DNA of 10,279 bases from Myxococcota bacterium (lineage in GTDB: Bacteria > Myxococcota_A > Bradymonadia > UBA7976 > UBA1532): NCBI GenBank assembly GCA_018824465.1, contig JAHJGJ010000331.1:1-10279 (forward strand), in the 5' to 3' direction. Shown here in pieces: positions 1 to 6,018 of this stretch; positions within the stretch are counted from its first letter, which is position 1, and each line of letters starts with the position of its first letter. The notes below the pieces were generated by a model. The model was not told the DNA's origin. It searched no databases and worked only from the letters and a program-made list of their open reading frames with translations. Made by a program: the position numbers and the translations under genes.

Positions 1-1522
1 CAGCGCGCGGCGGAGATAAGGGCTGGGCCCGCGCTGGCTCAATGGCGCGCGCCGCGCCGCGCGGGGGCGGATCAAAGGCCCGCGTCTCCTCGGCCTCAAA
101 GGGATCGTCGCCAGGGAAGGAGGCCGCGATGGAGTCATAGTCGGCGCCGACGACTTGGTGTCCGACGGCGAAGTCAGCGCGCGCCTGCCCGCCTTGAGGG
201 CTCGGCTGGGCGTAGCTGGGGGGCTGCTCGTAGGCGGGCTGGGCGTAGCTGGGCTGTTGCGGCTCGTAGTTGGGCTGCGGCTGGGCGTAGTTGGGCTGCG
301 GCTGGGCGTAGGCGGGCTGCGGCTGCTCATAGCTCGGCTGCTCGTAGGCGGGCTGCGGCTGCTCATAGCTCGGCTGCGCATAGCCGGGCTGCGGCTGCTC
401 ATAGCTGGGCTGGGCGTACGCGGAGCGGTAGGAGGGGTCCTCGACCACCTCCATCTCGTCATCGCCCAGCTCCATCAACTCAGAGATGAACTCGGGCTCC
501 ATCGAGCCGTGATCTTCAACCTCTGGGATCCGCATGATCACCGATTGGTTGTCGATGATGTAATCGTCGCGCCCTTGGAGGAGATCGCCCGCGCGCTGAT
601 CTTGGGCCTCATCAAACAGCACCTGCATCAGCTGGCTGAGGTGGCTCTTGTTAAACATCGTGCCGTAATCGCGCAGGAATCGCTCCAGATCCCGCTGCAT
701 ATGCTGGGCGGATGGATAGCGATCTTCACGCTCCCGCGCCAGCGCCTTCATCACGATGTCTTCAAGCTCGGTGGGGATCTCAGGGCGAACACGGCTGGGG
801 AGATCGATGTCGGCGCGGCGGACACGGCTGAGGAGGTTGACGTCGTCCTCGTCCTTGTAGAGCAATTCGCCCGTCAGCATCTCATAGAAGAGGATGCCCA
901 GGCTGAAGATGTCCGTGCGGTGATCCAGGCGCTCCCCCTTCGCCTGCTCAGGGGACATGTAGTAGAACTTGCCCTTGATGATCCCCGACTCCGTCTCCGT
1001 GGCCCGCGTCGCCGCCTTGGCGATGCCGAAGTCCACCACCTTCACGTCCCCCTCGAAGGAGAGGAGGATGTTCTGCGGCGAGATGTCGCGGTGGATGATC
1101 GAGAGCGGGCGACCTCGGCTGTCATTCTTGCGGTGGGCGTAGTCGAGACCGGCGAGGGCCTCCATGGCGATGTACGCGGCGGCGTCAATGGGGAAGACGA
1201 GGCGCTGATCCGTCAGCCGCCGCATCGCCCGATAGAGATCCTTGCCGTCGATGTACTCCATGGCGATGTAGTAGTGGTCTTCGAGCTTCCCCAGGTCATA
1301 GATCTGGACAATGTTGCTGTGGGTCAGCTCCACCGTGATGCGCGCCTCATCGATCAGCATCTCGATGAAGTCCGCGTCCTGGCTAAAGCGTGGGTGCAGG
1401 CGCTTGATGGCCAGGATCTTCTCAAAGCCGCCGAAGCCGGAGGCGCTGGCCCGAAAGATCTCGGCCATCCCGCCGATCGCCACGCGCTCTAGGAGGGTGT
1501 AACGCCCAAACTGCTCATTCAT
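1..1522 (-). CDS. Hanks-type Ser/Thr protein kinase, 3'-partial (C-terminus beyond window start). The N-terminal kinase domain is followed by an acidic linker and a Pro/Tyr/Gln-rich tandem-repeat tail.
   Basis: Minus-strand frame is open from the ATG at 1522..1520 to position 1, with no stop in the window; this is why the ORF track does not list it. Translation reads MNEQFGRYTLLERVAIGGMAEIF...ILAIKRL (Gly-loop plus VAIK Lys)...HRDISPQNILL (catalytic loop)...DFGIAKA (DFG)...YYMSPEQ (APE-like)...DIFSLGILFYEMLTG. Frame verified by hand at 421-478 (…SELMELGDDEMEVVEDPSYRS…). Confidence 0.85.
   Translation of the reverse strand, partial: MNEQFGRYTLLERVAIGGMAEIFRASASGFGGFEKILAIKRLHPRFSQDADFIEMLIDEARITVELTHSNIVQIYDLGKLEDHYYIAMEYIDGKDLYRAMRRLTDQRLVFPIDAAAYIAMEALAGLDYAHRKNDSRGRPLSIIHRDISPQNILLSFEGDVKVVDFGIAKAATRATETESGIIKGKFYYMSPEQAKGERLDHRTDIFSLGILFYEMLTGELLYKDEDDVNLLSRVRRADIDLPSRVRPEIPTELEDIVMKALAREREDRYPSAQHMQRDLERFLRDYGTMFNKSHLSQLMQVLFDEAQDQRAGDLLQGRDDYIIDNQSVIMRIPEVEDHGSMEPEFISELMELGDDEMEVVEDPSYRSAYAQPSYEQPQPGYAQPSYEQPQPAYEQPSYEQPQPAYAQPQPNYAQPQPNYEPQQPSYAQPAYEQPPSYAQPSPQGGQARADFAVGHQVVGADYDSIAASFPGDDPFEAEETRAFDPPPRGAARAIEPARAQPLSPPRA
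205..420 (-). repeat. In-frame tandem DNA repeats inside the kinase gene: an exact 21-bp unit x2 (266-286, 287-307), then a 36-bp unit x3 (308-343, 344-379 at 35/36 identity, 380-415 more diverged). They encode a PxY(A/E)QPQP-type peptide repeat (…PSYEQPQPAYEQPSYEQPQPAYAQPQPNYAQPQPNYEPQQPSYAQPAYEQPPSYAQ…).
   Basis: Direct reading of the plus strand: gtagttgggctgcggctgggc twice; gtaggcgggctgcggctgctcatagctcggctgc(t/g)c twice, followed by a third related copy. Confidence 0.8.
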
Positions 1523-1691
1523 CAGTCACTCGATCCGCTGCGGTCGAGCGGCGCAAGCGCCGCGCGCAGGATGCCTCCGGGGCCTCATAGACAGGCCGCA
1601 TTATGCGTAGATTGGGGGCGAGGCGCTAGCGCCGGGAGGAGAAAGCGCCCTCACCCTCGCGACACGGCCCGCCTCGCCCCCGCCTCACGCC

Positions 1692-3149
1692 GTGATCATG
1701 GTTGACGCTGGCAGGAGCGCCGCGCAAACTGCCGCCATGGGAAAAAAGTTCCCCGACTATGTCCCTCCAACACAGATCGCTTATCGAGATGATGGAGGCA
1801 CGACGCTTCACCTGCGGAAGTGTCGGCTCGCCGTGCAGCGCGGTGAACGCTGGGAGGAGACCATCTTCGACCAGACCACCATCACCATCGGCGCCATGGA
1901 GGACAATGACCTCACGCTGAGGGACGAGACGGTCAGCCGCTACCACTGTCGGATCTCTCAAGAGGGCAACGCCTACGTCCTCCAAGATCTCAACAGCACC
2001 AACGGCAGCTTCATCGACAAGGTGCGCATCAAGGAGGCCTACCTCACCCCCGGCTGCGTGCTCTCCTTGGGCAAGACCAAGATCCGCTTCCAGAGCGTGG
2101 ATGAGGAGGTCCATATTCGGCCGCTCAAGGACGAGCGGTTTGGGGAGATCATCGGGACAAACGTTCGGATGCGCGAGCTCTTCGGGATCTTGGAGAAGAT
2201 CGCCCCCAGCGACGCGACGGTGATCATCGAGGGGGAGACGGGCACCGGCAAGGAGGTCGTCGCCCGCACCATCCACGAGAAATCCCTGCGGGCCAAGCAG
2301 CCCTTTATCATCTTTGACTGCTCTGCTGTCCCCGAGAACCTGATCGAGTCTGAGCTTTTTGGTCATGAGAAGGGCTCCTTCACCGGGGCGATCATGGCCC
2401 GACCGGGCCTCTTTGAGATGGCCCATAACGGCACGATCTTCCTTGATGAGCTGGGCGAGCTGAGCGTGGACTTGCAGCCCAAGCTGCTGCGGGTCTTGGA
2501 GACGCGCGAGGTCCGCCGCGTCGGCGGCACCCGCTCGGTCAAGGTCAACGTCCGTGTCGTCGCCGCCACCAACCGCAAGCTCGAAGAGGAGGTCAAGGCG
2601 GGGCGCTTTCGTCAAGACCTCTACTATCGCCTCAGCGTGGTGCGCATCTTCCTGCCACCACTACGCGAGCGGCCCGAGGACATCCCCCTCCTCGTCCGCC
2701 ACTTCCTGCGCCAAGGCCGCTTTAACCGCGACGTGGACGGCCAGATGAAGGTCAAGGGCCTGTCGATCGACACGCTCAACCACCTGCTGCCTTACCCTTG
2801 GCCGGGCAACGTGCGCGAGCTGCTCAACGTCATGGAGCGGGCGTGCAGCTTCTGCGAGGGGGTCACGCTCAGCCCTGATGATCTGCCGCGGCACGTCATC
2901 GAGCAAGGCAGCCCGCCGCCCAGCGCGCCGCGCCGCCCCGCGCCGCCCTCGCGCCCGCCGATCAACCCGCTCGTCTCCTTCAAGGACGCCAAGGAGCAGA
3001 TCGTCTCGGACTTTGAGCGGGAGTACATCTTCGATCTCTTGCAGCGGCATCAATTTAACATCAGCCACGCCTCCCGAGAGGCCGACATTGATCGTAAATA
3101 CTTTAGAAAGCTGATGAAGAAGTACGAGATCGCCGCCCCGACGCGCTGA
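1692..3149 (+). CDS. σ54-dependent transcriptional activator (bacterial enhancer-binding protein) with an N-terminal FHA domain instead of a receiver domain. Domain order is FHA, then AAA+ σ54-interaction domain, then a Pro-rich linker and a C-terminal Fis-type HTH.
   Basis: FHA signature TIGAMEDNDLTL…VSRYHCRI…YVLQDLNSTNGSFID. Walker A GETGTGKE, Walker B FLDELGEL, σ54-contact loop EKGSFTGA (GAFTGA variant), ESELFGHEKG. Linker is GSPPPSAPRRPAPPSRPP. C-terminal HTH is ISHASREADIDRKYFRKLMKKY. Start is ambiguous: GTG 1692, ATG 1698 or ATG 1737 (MGKKFPDY…). None has a well-spaced SD. Confidence 0.9.
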   Translation: MIMVDAGRSAAQTAAMGKKFPDYVPPTQIAYRDDGGTTLHLRKCRLAVQRGERWEETIFDQTTITIGAMEDNDLTLRDETVSRYHCRISQEGNAYVLQDLNSTNGSFIDKVRIKEAYLTPGCVLSLGKTKIRFQSVDEEVHIRPLKDERFGEIIGTNVRMRELFGILEKIAPSDATVIIEGETGTGKEVVARTIHEKSLRAKQPFIIFDCSAVPENLIESELFGHEKGSFTGAIMARPGLFEMAHNGTIFLDELGELSVDLQPKLLRVLETREVRRVGGTRSVKVNVRVVAATNRKLEEEVKAGRFRQDLYYRLSVVRIFLPPLRERPEDIPLLVRHFLRQGRFNRDVDGQMKVKGLSIDTLNHLLPYPWPGNVRELLNVMERACSFCEGVTLSPDDLPRHVIEQGSPPPSAPRRPAPPSRPPINPLVSFKDAKEQIVSDFEREYIFDLLQRHQFNISHASREADIDRKYFRKLMKKYEIAAPTR

Positions 3150-3245
3150 GCCTCGGTCCGCCGCGCGCGCCCGCTGCGCGTGGTGGCTTTCAGCCGCCTC
3201 TTAGGCTACAACCCCTCAAATTCCCGAGAATTATAGGTCCCAGCC

Positions 3246-4562
3246 ATGACCCGATATCTCCCCAGGCTCATCGCGGCCCTCTGCCTGCTGAGCGGCGGCG
3301 CCTACGCCCAAGGTGAGGGCGGCGGGATCGACGTCCCCGTCAACCCCAGCGACGTGGCGCTGATCCAGCTGGCCGTGCCCAACGCCGTCAACCTCGGCGA
3401 TGTCCCCGACACGCGGGGGATCACCGAGGCCCTCTCCGGCACGGTGATCCGCGATTTACAGATCTCAGGGCACTTCAACTTTATCCCGCGCGGCGCCTAC
3501 CTCGTCGATCCCGCCAAGGAGGGCCTGGAGCCGGACTTCAAGGCCTGGTTCAACGCCGGCACGCAGGGGCTCATCAAGATCGGCTACCGGATCGAGGGCC
3601 AGCGCGTCTCGGTGGACATGCGCCTCTTCAGCGTCGATGGCAACGAGCGGATCACGCTGCCGGCGCCCTACCAAGCCGCCGCCGCCCTGCCCGTCGATCT
3701 GCCCCAGCTGCGCGCCCACGCCCACGGCTTCGTCAACGAGGTGCTGCGCTACTACACAAAGTCGCCCGGCTTCTTCCTCAGCAAGATCGTCTTCGTCAAG
3801 CGGCTCAAGCGGGGCAAAGCCATCTACACCGTCTCCCCCGATGGCTACGATGAGGCGCGGATCACCCAAGGCGACAGCATCAACATGCTGCCGAGCTGGC
3901 GTGGGGGGCGGATTTACTTCACCAGCTTCCGCAACGGCGGCGTCCACCTCTTCACCTACAGCGGCGGCCATGTCCGCCCCTTCGCCGCCTACGAGGGGCT
4001 CAACACTGGCGCCAAGCTCTCCCCGGACGGCAAGACCATCGCCTGCACGCTCAGCAAGGACGGCAACCCGGAGATCTACCTCCTCAACGGGGCCACCGGC
4101 GAGGTGATCAAGCGCCTGACGAACCACTGGGGCATCGACACCAGCCCCACATGGTCCCCCGACGGCCAGCGCATCGCCTTTGTCAGCGATCGTCACGGCA
4201 CCCCGCAGATCTGGGTGATGGACGCTGGCGGCGGCAATCAAAAGCGGCTGACCTTCCAAGGCGAGTACAATCAGACCCCTGCGTGGAGCCCACGCGGCGA
4301 TAAGATCGCCTTCACCGCGCGTGATGAGCGCAATGTCTTTGATATCTTTACGGTGGCCGTGGCGGACGGGGCCTTGGAGCGGTTGACGCAGAACCAAGGC
4401 AACAATGAGCAGCCCTCATGGTCCCCCGATGGCCGTTATCTCGTGTTCTCCAGCACCCGAAACGGCGAATCCAAGCTCTATATCACCAACGCGGATGGCC
4501 GCGTGCAGACCCAAATCAGCACAGGCAAGGGCGAGTACCTCACGCCCTTCTGGCAGCGTTGA
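3246..4562 (+). CDS. tolB: TolB, the periplasmic β-propeller component of the Tol-Pal system.
   Basis: Signal peptide MTRYLPRLIAALCLLSGGAYAQ. N-terminal TolB domain (…IRDLQISGHFNFIP…). Six-bladed propeller with repeated [WL]SPDG motifs (LSPDGKT, WSPDGQR, WSPRGDK, WSPDGRY). Strong resemblance to E. coli TolB (…PTWSPDGQRIAFVSDRHGTPQIWVMD…). Confidence 0.93.
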   Translation: MTRYLPRLIAALCLLSGGAYAQGEGGGIDVPVNPSDVALIQLAVPNAVNLGDVPDTRGITEALSGTVIRDLQISGHFNFIPRGAYLVDPAKEGLEPDFKAWFNAGTQGLIKIGYRIEGQRVSVDMRLFSVDGNERITLPAPYQAAAALPVDLPQLRAHAHGFVNEVLRYYTKSPGFFLSKIVFVKRLKRGKAIYTVSPDGYDEARITQGDSINMLPSWRGGRIYFTSFRNGGVHLFTYSGGHVRPFAAYEGLNTGAKLSPDGKTIACTLSKDGNPEIYLLNGATGEVIKRLTNHWGIDTSPTWSPDGQRIAFVSDRHGTPQIWVMDAGGGNQKRLTFQGEYNQTPAWSPRGDKIAFTARDERNVFDIFTVAVADGALERLTQNQGNNEQPSWSPDGRYLVFSSTRNGESKLYITNADGRVQTQISTGKGEYLTPFWQR

Positions 4563-4566: not shown

Positions 4567-4569
4567 AAC

Positions 4570-5265
4570 ATGCGCTCGTGGACATGGATCGCGCTCAGCC
4601 TGCTCGTTATCAGCTGCGGCGGCCCCCCGCAGAGAGAACTCAGCGAGGTGGACTTGGCGATGAAGGAGGCGGTGTTGGCCCAGCGCTGCGCCCCCGAGGA
4701 GTACGCCGCCGCCCAACGGATGCAGCAGAAGGCCAACCAGCTCTCCAAGGACGGCAAGTACGACGAGGCCAAGGTGACAGCCATCGCCGCCAAGAAGCTC
4801 TATGAGGAGGCGCAGAAGAAGGCGGCGGCGCGCCGCGAGGAGTGCTTCAAGCCCAAGAACGGCGTCGAGCCCAAGGGCGTCAAGGCGTTCTTGGAGGAGG
4901 ACAAGAACGCCGCGGCCCTCGACGCCACGGCGGGCAGGGGCCTACAGACCGTCTTCTTTGACTTCAACGCCTTCGAGGTCAACGCCAGTAATCGCGAGGT
5001 CCTCAACCACAACGCGCAGTGGATCAACGCCCGCCCCGACAAGAAGATCACGCTGTCGGGGCACGCCGATGAGCGTGGCAGCAGCGAGTACAACTTGGCC
5101 TTGGGCGAGAAGCGCGCGCTCGTCGTCAAGCGCTACCTCATCACCCTCGGCGTCAACGGCGATCGGCTCAGGACGATGAGCTTCGGTGAGGAGATGCCCC
5201 TGGAGCTGGGCAATAACGAGGCGGCCCACGCCCATAACCGCCGCGTCGAGCTCGCCTCGAACTGA
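4570..5265 (+). CDS. pal: Peptidoglycan-associated lipoprotein Pal (OmpA-like C-terminal domain). It has an unusually long N-terminal region of ~110 aa that is helical and Lys/Ala/Glu-rich.
   Basis: Lipoprotein signal MRSWTWIALSLLVISC with lipobox L-V-I-S-C. C-terminal OmpA/Pal motif …VFFDFNAFEV…ITLSGHADERGSSEYNLALGEKRALVVKRYL…HAHNRRVEL. The 4405 start given by the ORF track would overlap tolB by 158 nt and has no signal peptide. Confidence 0.9.
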   Translation: MRSWTWIALSLLVISCGGPPQRELSEVDLAMKEAVLAQRCAPEEYAAAQRMQQKANQLSKDGKYDEAKVTAIAAKKLYEEAQKKAAARREECFKPKNGVEPKGVKAFLEEDKNAAALDATAGRGLQTVFFDFNAFEVNASNREVLNHNAQWINARPDKKITLSGHADERGSSEYNLALGEKRALVVKRYLITLGVNGDRLRTMSFGEEMPLELGNNEAAHAHNRRVELASN

Positions 5266-5280: not shown

Positions 5281-6018
5281 ATGCCCCTCTTCCTGCTCAC
5301 CAACGATGATGGCTACGGCGCGCCTGGCCTGGAGGCGCTGGCCGCCGCGCTGAGCCCGCTGGGCGAGGTCGCCATCATCGCCCCCGATCGCGAGCGCTCC
5401 GGCTGCGCGCGCAGCATCAGCCTTCACCACCCGCTGCGGATCAGCCCCCGAGGGCCGCTGCGCTGGGCCATCAGCGGCACGCCCAGCGACGCCGTCTATG
5501 TGGGCATCCACCACCTCTTGCCGCGCCCCCCCGATCTGGTCCTCAGCGGGATCAACCGAGGGCCCAACTTGGCCGAGGACATCCACTACTCGGGCACGGC
5601 GGCGGGGGCCATCGAGGGGGCCATGAACGGGCTGCGGGCGGCGGCGCTGAGCCTCAGCGCGGGCGCGGACTACAGCCACATCGCCGCCTTCGCCGCGCGG
5701 CTGGCGGCGTGGATGCTCAAGCGCCCCGCGCCGCTGATCCTCAACGTCAACGCGCCGCAGGGCGCGCCCAAGGGCGTCCGCTTGGCGCCGCTGGGGCGGC
5801 GCGACTACAGCCACACCGTCGAGGCGCGCGTCGATCCCCGGGGCAAGCCCTACGTCTGGATTGGCGGGGCGTTGGGGTTCAAGCCGACGCCTGGCAGCGA
5901 CTGCGATCTCAACGCGGAGGGCTACCTCACGCTGACGCCGCTGCGCTTGGATCAGACCGATCATCAAGCGCTGGGCGCCTTAGAGGGCTTGGACTTGGAG
6001 GCGGAGGGGCTTACTTGA
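5281..6018 (+). CDS. surE: 5'/3'-nucleotidase SurE (stationary-phase survival protein).
   Basis: N-terminus MPLFLLTNDDGYGAPGLEALA…VAIIAPDRERSGCARSISL. Motifs SGINRGPNLAEDIHYSGTAAGAIEG and EGYLTLTPLRLDQTDH are all canonical SurE. GGAG SD sits 7 nt upstream of the ATG. The gap of only 15 nt after pal suggests a tolB-pal-surE operon. Confidence 0.92.
   Translation: MPLFLLTNDDGYGAPGLEALAAALSPLGEVAIIAPDRERSGCARSISLHHPLRISPRGPLRWAISGTPSDAVYVGIHHLLPRPPDLVLSGINRGPNLAEDIHYSGTAAGAIEGAMNGLRAAALSLSAGADYSHIAAFAARLAAWMLKRPAPLILNVNAPQGAPKGVRLAPLGRRDYSHTVEARVDPRGKPYVWIGGALGFKPTPGSDCDLNAEGYLTLTPLRLDQTDHQALGALEGLDLEAEGLT

Follow-up and report, generated by a model that had tools for sequence, protein, structure and literature searches.

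The stretch of 10,279 nucleotides analysed here (contig JAHJGJ010000331.1 of a Myxococcota bacterium; hereafter the window) is a fragment with 59-75% GC from an uncultured member of the Myxococcota. At its left end it carries a Ser/Thr protein kinase gene on the minus strand and, diverging from it on the plus strand, a gene for a sigma-54 enhancer-binding protein with an N-terminal FHA domain. Both genes lie where the initial annotation had placed them, as translation and Pfam searches confirm. Here we describe this kinase and activator, follow them through orthologous loci, and weigh the possibility that the kinase acts on the activator by way of phosphothreonine (pThr). The features of the pair are as follows.

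1-1522, minus strand: Ser/Thr protein kinase gene, N-terminal 507 codons (translation, Pfam Pkinase match, orthologs in L004, L006 and L039 of the comparison loci introduced below)
662-1507, minus strand: kinase catalytic domain, residues 6-287 (Pfam; residues invariant in an alignment of nine kinases)
1070-1093, minus strand: kinase catalytic loop HRDISPQN (same alignment)
1025-1033, minus strand: kinase DFG motif
992-994, minus strand: kinase activation-loop Thr177
221-423, minus strand: Pro/Gln-rich repeat linker YAQPQP / YEQPQP after the kinase domain (translation; tandem repeats with a period of 15-63 nt)
1523-1736, no strand: divergent intergenic region, 214 bp (sequence)
1702-1730, plus strand: sigma-70-like promoter candidate, TTGACG (1702-1707)-N17-CAAACT (1725-1730) (conserved blocks)
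1737-3149, plus strand: sigma-54 enhancer-binding protein of 470 aa with N-terminal FHA domain (Pfam, NCBIfam)
1737-1799, plus strand: N-terminal tail, residues 1-21, FPDYVPP-T12-QIAY, with the Thr12 codon at 1770-1772 (ortholog alignment, AlphaFold2)
1800-2111, plus strand: FHA domain, residues 22-125, with Gly52-Ala53 (1890-1895), Ser67-Arg68-Tyr69-His70 and Thr88-Asn89-Gly90 (Pfam, AlphaFold2, Foldseek)
2148-2915, plus strand: AAA+ sigma-54 interaction domain and lid, with Walker A GETGTGKE, the GSFTGA loop (2373-2390) and Walker B FLDELGE (Pfam)
3006-3125, plus strand: Fis-type helix-turn-helix DNA-binding domain, NISHAsREADIDRKYFRKLMKKY (Pfam HTH_8; nearly invariant in orthologs)

The kinase and activator genes

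For comparison we used 80 loci, one genome per species, obtained by scanning with the FHA region specific to this activator family; genes were called and clustered, and the window proteins were mapped onto them. These loci (L numbers below) span Kofleriaceae, Haliangiales, Sandaracinaceae, Polyangiales, Bradymonadales and unclassified Myxococcota.

Translated from its start at 1522, the kinase frame runs for 507 codons without a stop and continues past the left edge of the window. Its product matches Hanks-type kinases (Pfam Pkinase, PF00069, E 1.4e-41, residues 6-287), and it holds the residues expected of the kinase fold, namely the beta-3 lysine (Lys40), the alpha-C glutamate (Glu59), the HRD aspartate (His144-Arg-Asp146), the catalytic asparagine (Asn151) and the DFG motif (Asp164-Phe-Gly166). 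All of these, as well as activation-loop Thr177, are invariant in the nine-kinase alignment. C-terminal of the domain come an acidic stretch and then the Pro/Gln-rich repeat. Full-length orthologs (from L004, L006, L076, L049 and L065) measure 674-973 aa; in them the kinase domain is followed by a linker that is acidic and rich in Pro, a single transmembrane helix and two to three PEGA domains. Since the orthologs are receptor kinases of this kind, we infer the same architecture, a transmembrane helix followed by periplasmic PEGA repeats, for the missing C-terminus of the window kinase; with that architecture the kinase would sense a cue from the periplasm or envelope. About 40 residues past the kinase domain, a Ser-x-Ile sequence (D..S[VIM]I; residues 327-329, 536-544 on the minus strand) is invariant in 9/9 kinases and may be a docking or phospho-acceptor motif. 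Opposite the kinase gene runs a long antisense open reading frame of 445 aa (155-1492, plus strand); this and other antisense frames (e.g. 7256-8530, 424 aa) were set aside as high-GC artefacts, having no family matches and overlapping genes with a strong bias in third-position GC.

The activator is identical to NCBI protein MBU1431441.1 ('Myxococcota bacterium'). Pfam recognizes in it an FHA domain (PF00498, residues 49-112, E 5.9e-17), the sigma-54 interaction domain Sigma54_activat (PF00158, residues 138-304, E 2.5e-69) with its lid (AAA_lid_14, E 1.7e-22), and the helix-turn-helix HTH_8 (PF02954, residues 424-463), the last with 24.1 bits against a cutoff of 22. The same scan of the activator frame gave no Response_reg match, which bears out the earlier statement that an FHA domain stands where a receiver would be. 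The GETGTGKE, FLDELGE and GSFTGA motifs are invariant among 21 orthologs, GSFTGA (residues 213-218) being a one-residue variant of the GAFTGA loop that contacts sigma-54. The AAA+ domain, the sigma-54 contact loop and the helix-turn-helix of a bacterial enhancer-binding protein are all present. The E-values of the kinase and activator domains lie far outside what chance would give.

For the activator start, the initial annotation had offered either 1692 or 1737, and with them a spacer of 169-215 bp. Only the second of these survives: 20/20 aligned orthologs begin with M-x-K/Q-K-F-P-D at the position of ATG 1737, and public gene calls give a protein of 470 aa. GTG 1692 is ruled out by these N-termini, by the public calls and by a conserved promoter-like element between 1692 and 1737. 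With ATG 1737 as the start, the two divergent genes are separated by 214 bp (1523-1736). The element at 1702-1730, whose TTGAC/TTGCG and CA.xCT blocks are kept in the window and the three closest loci (L004, L006 and L039), suggests a sigma-70-type promoter, as a candidate only; a generic sigma-70 scanner did not call it. As it ends 6 nt before the ATG, it would imply an activator mRNA with no leader or almost none. Neither Rfam nor tRNA scans of the window gave a match.

Conservation of the gene pair

The activator belongs to a highly conserved family, with more than 100 metagenomic proteins sharing 60-72% identity over their full length. Three loci (L004, L006 and L039) have, as the window does, a divergent kinase gene immediately ahead of the activator ortholog, and these kinases are 76% identical to the window kinase within the kinase domain, and 66-71% over approximately 330-370 aa. 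Four Bradymonadales-like loci (L023, L049, L060 and L065) likewise carry a divergent kinase upstream, together with a second kinase that is convergent and 30-77 bp downstream; in L050 a downstream kinase only is seen, its contig ending 147 nt upstream of the activator. A third arrangement is found in L076, where the activator is followed, on its own strand, by the kinase most similar to that of the window (54-58% identity).

In a neighbour-joining tree of 73 activators, the kinase-bearing loci make up two clades: that of the window, in which 4/5 members have the kinase (L005 being the exception), and a Bradymonadales-like clade with 6/6, which brings the two together to 10/11. A tree of the kinase domains places the upstream kinases of both clades and the L076 kinase in one orthogroup with the window kinase, while the downstream kinases fall in separate groups. 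The activators of the two clades are only about 60% identical to each other, and no neighbour other than the kinase is common to both. The pair thus persists in three different gene orders, and everything else around it changes. Kinases account for 26 of the 1085 genes in the comparison loci (approximately 2.4%), and most of these are the ones that flank the activator; against a background of about 2.4% or lower, a kinase at position -1 is not to be expected by chance. From these comparisons we conclude that the kinase and activator genes are a genuine and selected pair in two lineages, and that the pairing is not universal in the activator family. As a signalling pair it is probably real, if fairly ordinary.

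In eight loci (L004, L006, L023, L039, L049, L050, L060 and L065) the activator is followed by a second transmembrane kinase, a paralog, in convergent orientation. The gap is 24-77 bp in most of them but about 1.25 kb in L006 and L039, and a kinase-activator-kinase sandwich results. Relatives such as Lujinxingia or Bradymonas have this sandwich as well. In the window, tolB-pal-surE takes the place of this downstream kinase.

FHA pocket, N-terminal tail and possible control by the kinase

The beta-sandwich FHA fold predicted for the activator is not in doubt. AlphaFold2, run on the FHA region only, models residues 21-120 with a per-residue confidence (pLDDT) of 81-96, and Foldseek matches this model to GarA (including its complex with PknB), OdhI, FhaA and EmbR with E 4e-9 to 1e-7 at a root-mean-square deviation of 1.4-2.1 A, the best match being GarA 6i2p (E 4e-9). 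The best matches by sequence and structure, GarA, OdhI, FhaA, EmbR and DgcB, are all kinase-regulated FHA proteins. Outside the FHA domain, the full-length AlphaFold2 model of the activator is of low confidence (mean pLDDT 64, pTM 0.33), and it was therefore not used for domain packing.

A canonical FHA domain carries a GR dipeptide, SxxH and NG, all described as crucial for pThr binding (PMC3162421). SxxH, before strand 5, and NG, before strand 7, are found in the activator; the GR motif is not. Across the 73 orthologs the pocket is nearly invariant: Ser67 is kept in 72, Arg68 in 73, His70 in 72, Thr88 in 73, Asn89 in 72 and Gly90 in 73, which indicates that the pocket is under selection. With the GR arginine absent, it would have to be Arg68 of the Ser-Arg-x-His sequence that supplies the positive charge. 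Its equivalent in DgcB, Arg76, moves onto the phosphate (PMC6733907). Binding of pThr by the activator FHA domain is plausible but unproven.

So does the missing arginine set this family apart? Among 141 cluster representatives of FHA-sigma-54 activators, collected in an exhaustive search, the residue after the glycine of the GR motif is S in 43, T in 38, A in 21, K in 19, R in 16 and another in 5. As such, Arg or Lys occupies this place in only 35/141, while SRxH and TNG are largely kept, and an FHA pocket without the arginine looks like a class-wide trait of FHA-sigma-54 activators rather than a peculiarity of one family.

Ahead of the FHA domain lies a short N-terminal tail, which is predicted to be disordered from its low AlphaFold2 confidence (pLDDT 33-46 for residues 1-10, and 37-64 for residues 11-20). 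It carries the motif PP-T12-[KQ]-[VI]-x-Y, in which Thr12 is kept in 71/73 orthologs and Tyr16 in 68/73. In GarA/OdhI and in DgcB, a phosphorylated tail binds the FHA domain and switches the output (PMC6733907).

How, then, might the kinase act on the activator? Once activated, the kinase would autophosphorylate on Thr177, and it would control the activator through a pThr contact with the FHA domain. This contact could take one of two forms. Either the FHA domain would dock on the kinase itself, or the kinase would phosphorylate the Thr12 tail of the activator, and an FHA domain of the same or of a neighbouring protomer would then bind this tail, in the manner of GarA/OdhI and DgcB. In both cases the contact would change the assembly of the AAA+ ring and, through it, sigma-54-dependent transcription. 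That a receptor Ser/Thr kinase controls the FHA-gated activator in this way, whether by its own pThr or by that of the Thr12 tail, is the most likely reading, although its chances are no better than about even.

Several observations weigh against it, and the initial interpretation is supported in part. The kinase was held by the initial annotation to be the obvious input, with conservation of the divergent pairing across relatives as a check. The pairing does recur, in 3/4 other members of the window's clade and in 6/6 Bradymonadales-like loci, and the orthologous pair in these two clades speaks for the kinase as an input; however, none of the 62 orthologous loci outside the two clades has a kinase at position -1, so that a neighbouring kinase cannot serve as the input across the whole family. 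In the clade of the window itself, L005 has no kinase within 10 kb, even though its activator is the most similar found (71% identity); its divergent upstream neighbour is a UvrA-like ABC ATPase beside an SbcC-like gene. The kinase itself departs from the usual catalytic loop, since the Lys of HRDxKxxN is Ser148 in 9/9 of the aligned kinases that flank the activator family (HRD[IV]SPQN). As for the Arg, Ser and Asn residues to which the initial annotation had tied pThr binding, Ser and Asn are kept, as is His, whereas in an ungapped profile alignment Gly52-Ala53 falls on the Gly-Arg of GarA, and position 53 is A in 38, S in 30, T in 3 and G in 1 of the 73 orthologs, never R or K. The same pattern is seen in 121 metagenomic homologs, again with no Arg or Lys at this position. 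The refutation that the initial annotation had named, a lack of these residues, is thus partly borne out. Furthermore, the +3 position to Thr12 is variable (A/S/T/H), with a conserved hydrophobic V/I at +2 and Tyr at +4 instead, while GarA- and DgcB-type FHA domains favour a hydrophobic +3 (PMC6733907). Lastly, the tail is short, with Thr12 only about 10 residues ahead of FHA strand 1.

These same observations feed the strongest alternative, in which the FHA domain serves regulation or oligomerisation independently of phosphorylation, or binds another ligand, and in which the input is a conserved factor encoded elsewhere, the kinase being functionally related, e.g. through a common pathway, without being the direct input. 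The GR arginine is, after all, absent in every ortholog and in 75% of the 141 representatives, most activator orthologs have no adjacent kinase, and FHA folds without pThr binding are known, such as MxiG and Cpn0172 FHA-2 (PMC3162421). Unlike MxiG, however, the activator FHA domain nearly always keeps SxxH, NG and the Thr that precedes Asn, and the persistence of the pair through its three rearrangements also speaks against this alternative. We regard it as a serious but rather doubtful account.

Considerably less probable, in our view, is that the adjacency reflects chance, or a gene order that was simply inherited, and that the two genes are functionally unrelated. Ser/Thr kinases are very numerous in Myxococcota, a kinase stands beside the activator at only 11 of the 73 orthologous loci (window included), and in L005 the UvrA-like gene is found upstream in its stead. 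Against this, the same kinase orthogroup adjoins the activator in two clades whose activators have diverged to about 60% identity and which share no other neighbour, the pair is still adjacent in L076 despite its different orientation, and the background density of kinases is low.

Returning to control by the kinase, a more specific version may be put forward, namely that FHA-sigma-54 activators as a class use the Arg-less pocket, to which the family of the window activator, widespread in Myxococcota, would add a Thr12 tail phosphorylated by the PEGA envelope-sensing kinase, making up a self-tail switch, like that of GarA or DgcB, which would gate the AAA+ ring. In this full form we think it unlikely. 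A comparison with the known systems shows both what the window pair has in common with them and where it departs from them. GarA and OdhI, actinobacterial proteins phosphorylated by PknB/PknG, are the best FHA matches (profile E 1e-13; Foldseek E 4e-9; root-mean-square deviation 1.4-1.6 A) and likewise have an N-terminal tail with a conserved Thr ahead of the FHA domain. They differ in being stand-alone FHA proteins that inhibit metabolic enzymes, with the GR arginine present and a longer tail, whereas here the FHA domain is fused to a transcription ATPase and has Gly-Ala in place of GR. The Bdellovibrio protein DgcB, of tail-FHA-GGDEF architecture, resembles the activator in its disordered tail with a conserved Thr, its FHA domain and its oligomeric output domain; binding of the pThr tail to the FHA domain activates its output, and its kinase is a separate protein (PMC6733907). 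However, its output is a diguanylate cyclase and not a sigma-54 AAA+ domain, and of the residues it uses, Arg61 (the GR Arg), Ser75, Arg76, Thr96 and Asn97, the equivalent of Arg61 is Ala in the window activator, while the +3 residue, Val in DgcB, is variable in the window activator family (PMC6733907). Two-component activators of the NtrC type share the AAA+ and helix-turn-helix output and an N-terminal domain that gates ring assembly (PMC3791423, PMC7175178), but their input is a receiver where the window activator has an FHA domain, and neither a histidine kinase nor Asp phosphorylation features here.

The locus therefore offers a specific, testable kinase-activator pair, formed by one PEGA kinase orthogroup and one highly conserved activator family, as well as two features for which any mechanism has to account, namely the missing GR arginine and the near-invariant Thr12 tail. 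If the proposed control is true, the pair would be a clear case in which Ser/Thr phosphorylation takes the place of His-Asp phosphotransfer in controlling a sigma-54 activator; if not, it is an ordinary annotation.

Activators of sigma-54 with an FHA sensor have been catalogued in myxobacteria since 2005. Control of such activators by Ser/Thr kinases was reportedly proposed for Myxococcus xanthus in that year by Jelsbak, Givskov and Kaiser, so that both the architecture and the kinase hypothesis precede this analysis. We know of no direct demonstration of this wiring, and to our knowledge the kinase partners of myxobacterial FHA-sigma-54 activators are largely unassigned. Calling it an established theme of myxobacterial signalling, as was done initially, therefore overstates the literature. 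The M. xanthus FHA enhancer-binding proteins (Jelsbak, Givskov and Kaiser 2005, PNAS 102:3010, as cited in PMC12288465 and PMC4320627) are like the window activator in having an N-terminal FHA domain, an AAA+ domain and a Fis-type helix-turn-helix, in lacking a receiver, and in having a Ser/Thr kinase as proposed input. What differs here is that the partner kinase can be identified by conserved adjacency; the FHA domain, moreover, is one without the GR arginine, and no ortholog of the window activator was found in a cultured myxobacterium. M. xanthus PexR was considered as a relative and rejected, since it has a GAF domain and not an FHA domain.

Downstream genes and sigma-54-type sites

Beyond the activator, three further genes follow on the same strand.

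3246-4562, plus strand: tolB
4567-5265, plus strand: pal
5281-6018, plus strand: surE

After surE, on the opposite strand, come a gene with a major-vault-protein shoulder and repeat domains, and then a PBP1C gene. The initial annotation had suggested that the kinase and activator define a regulon with tol-pal, the vault-like gene and a sigma-54-like promoter at 8618-8634. This suggestion is unsupported, because sigma-54-like matches are not enriched overall, the site is not conserved in two distant homologues of the vault-like gene, the neighbours are unshared and there is no good sigma-54 promoter before tolB. The site itself, TGGCACATAAAGCGCA (TGGCAC-N5-GCGCA), at 8634-8619 on the minus strand, is the best of its kind in the window, with a perfect -24 element and the correct GG-N10-GC spacing, and lies 53 nt upstream of the first in-frame ATG of the vault-like gene (8566) and 94 nt from the publicly called start of an 837-aa product (8524). 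Sigma-54-like matches are, however, not enriched in the window, where 27 were found and 40 expected. The site is also absent upstream of two vault-like homologues (L084 and L085, with 43% and 52% identity), a sample too small and distant to decide the matter, and neither the activator nor the kinase is found near the vault-like gene in these two loci, which apparently come from other, lower-GC taxa. TolB, Pal, SurE and the vault-like gene stand beside the activator in 0/80 other loci.

A reverse link, by which the activator would turn on the kinase gene or tolB-pal through sigma-54 promoters in the intergenic regions on either side, draws on the tendency of enhancer-binding proteins to adjoin their targets and on the Kofleriaceae-type loci described below, but we hold it to be highly improbable, as the divergent spacer (1523-1736) has no sigma-54-like site with three or fewer mismatches and the sole such match in 3150-3245 (3227-3242) is on the minus strand and points away from tolB. 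That match was accordingly rejected as a tolB promoter, and the only other element in the spacer before tolB, GG-N9-GC, has the wrong spacing.

In another lineage the activator family does sit beside sigma-54 promoters. Eleven Kofleriaceae-type loci (L028, L030, L031, L032, L035, L037, L038, L040, L041, L052 and L069) have a strong sigma-54-type promoter, TGGCACG-N4-[AG]TGCT, 12-28 nt before the ATG of a small gene for an OmpA-domain lipoprotein. This gene immediately precedes the activator ortholog and is read in the same direction, with the promoters 600-1500 nt upstream of the activator, and its product falls in the same BLAST cluster as the Pal of the window. Several of these loci have a second sigma-54-type element on the other strand, facing a divergent gene for a uracil-DNA-glycosylase-like protein, with the two promoters 0-50 bp apart. 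A search around the 11 promoters for a shared upstream activator site, as palindromic dyads with 4-nt half-sites and a spacer of 0-14, returned GC-rich noise only and hence no motif to apply to the window. The OmpA-type neighbour hints at an envelope connection of the activator family. With Kofleriaceae orthologs located behind a sigma-54-driven gene for an OmpA-like lipoprotein, and the window ortholog before tolB-pal, the output might be an envelope-maintenance regulon.

In the window, tolB and pal directly follow the activator with no tolQ, tolR or tolA upstream, and the first few nucleotides of pal overlap the tolB end, an arrangement found in no other locus. Beyond the right edge of the window, two loci of the same organism (L002 and L003) show the PBP1C gene followed by a very large gene of the alpha-2-macroglobulin family, with MG2/A2M domains.

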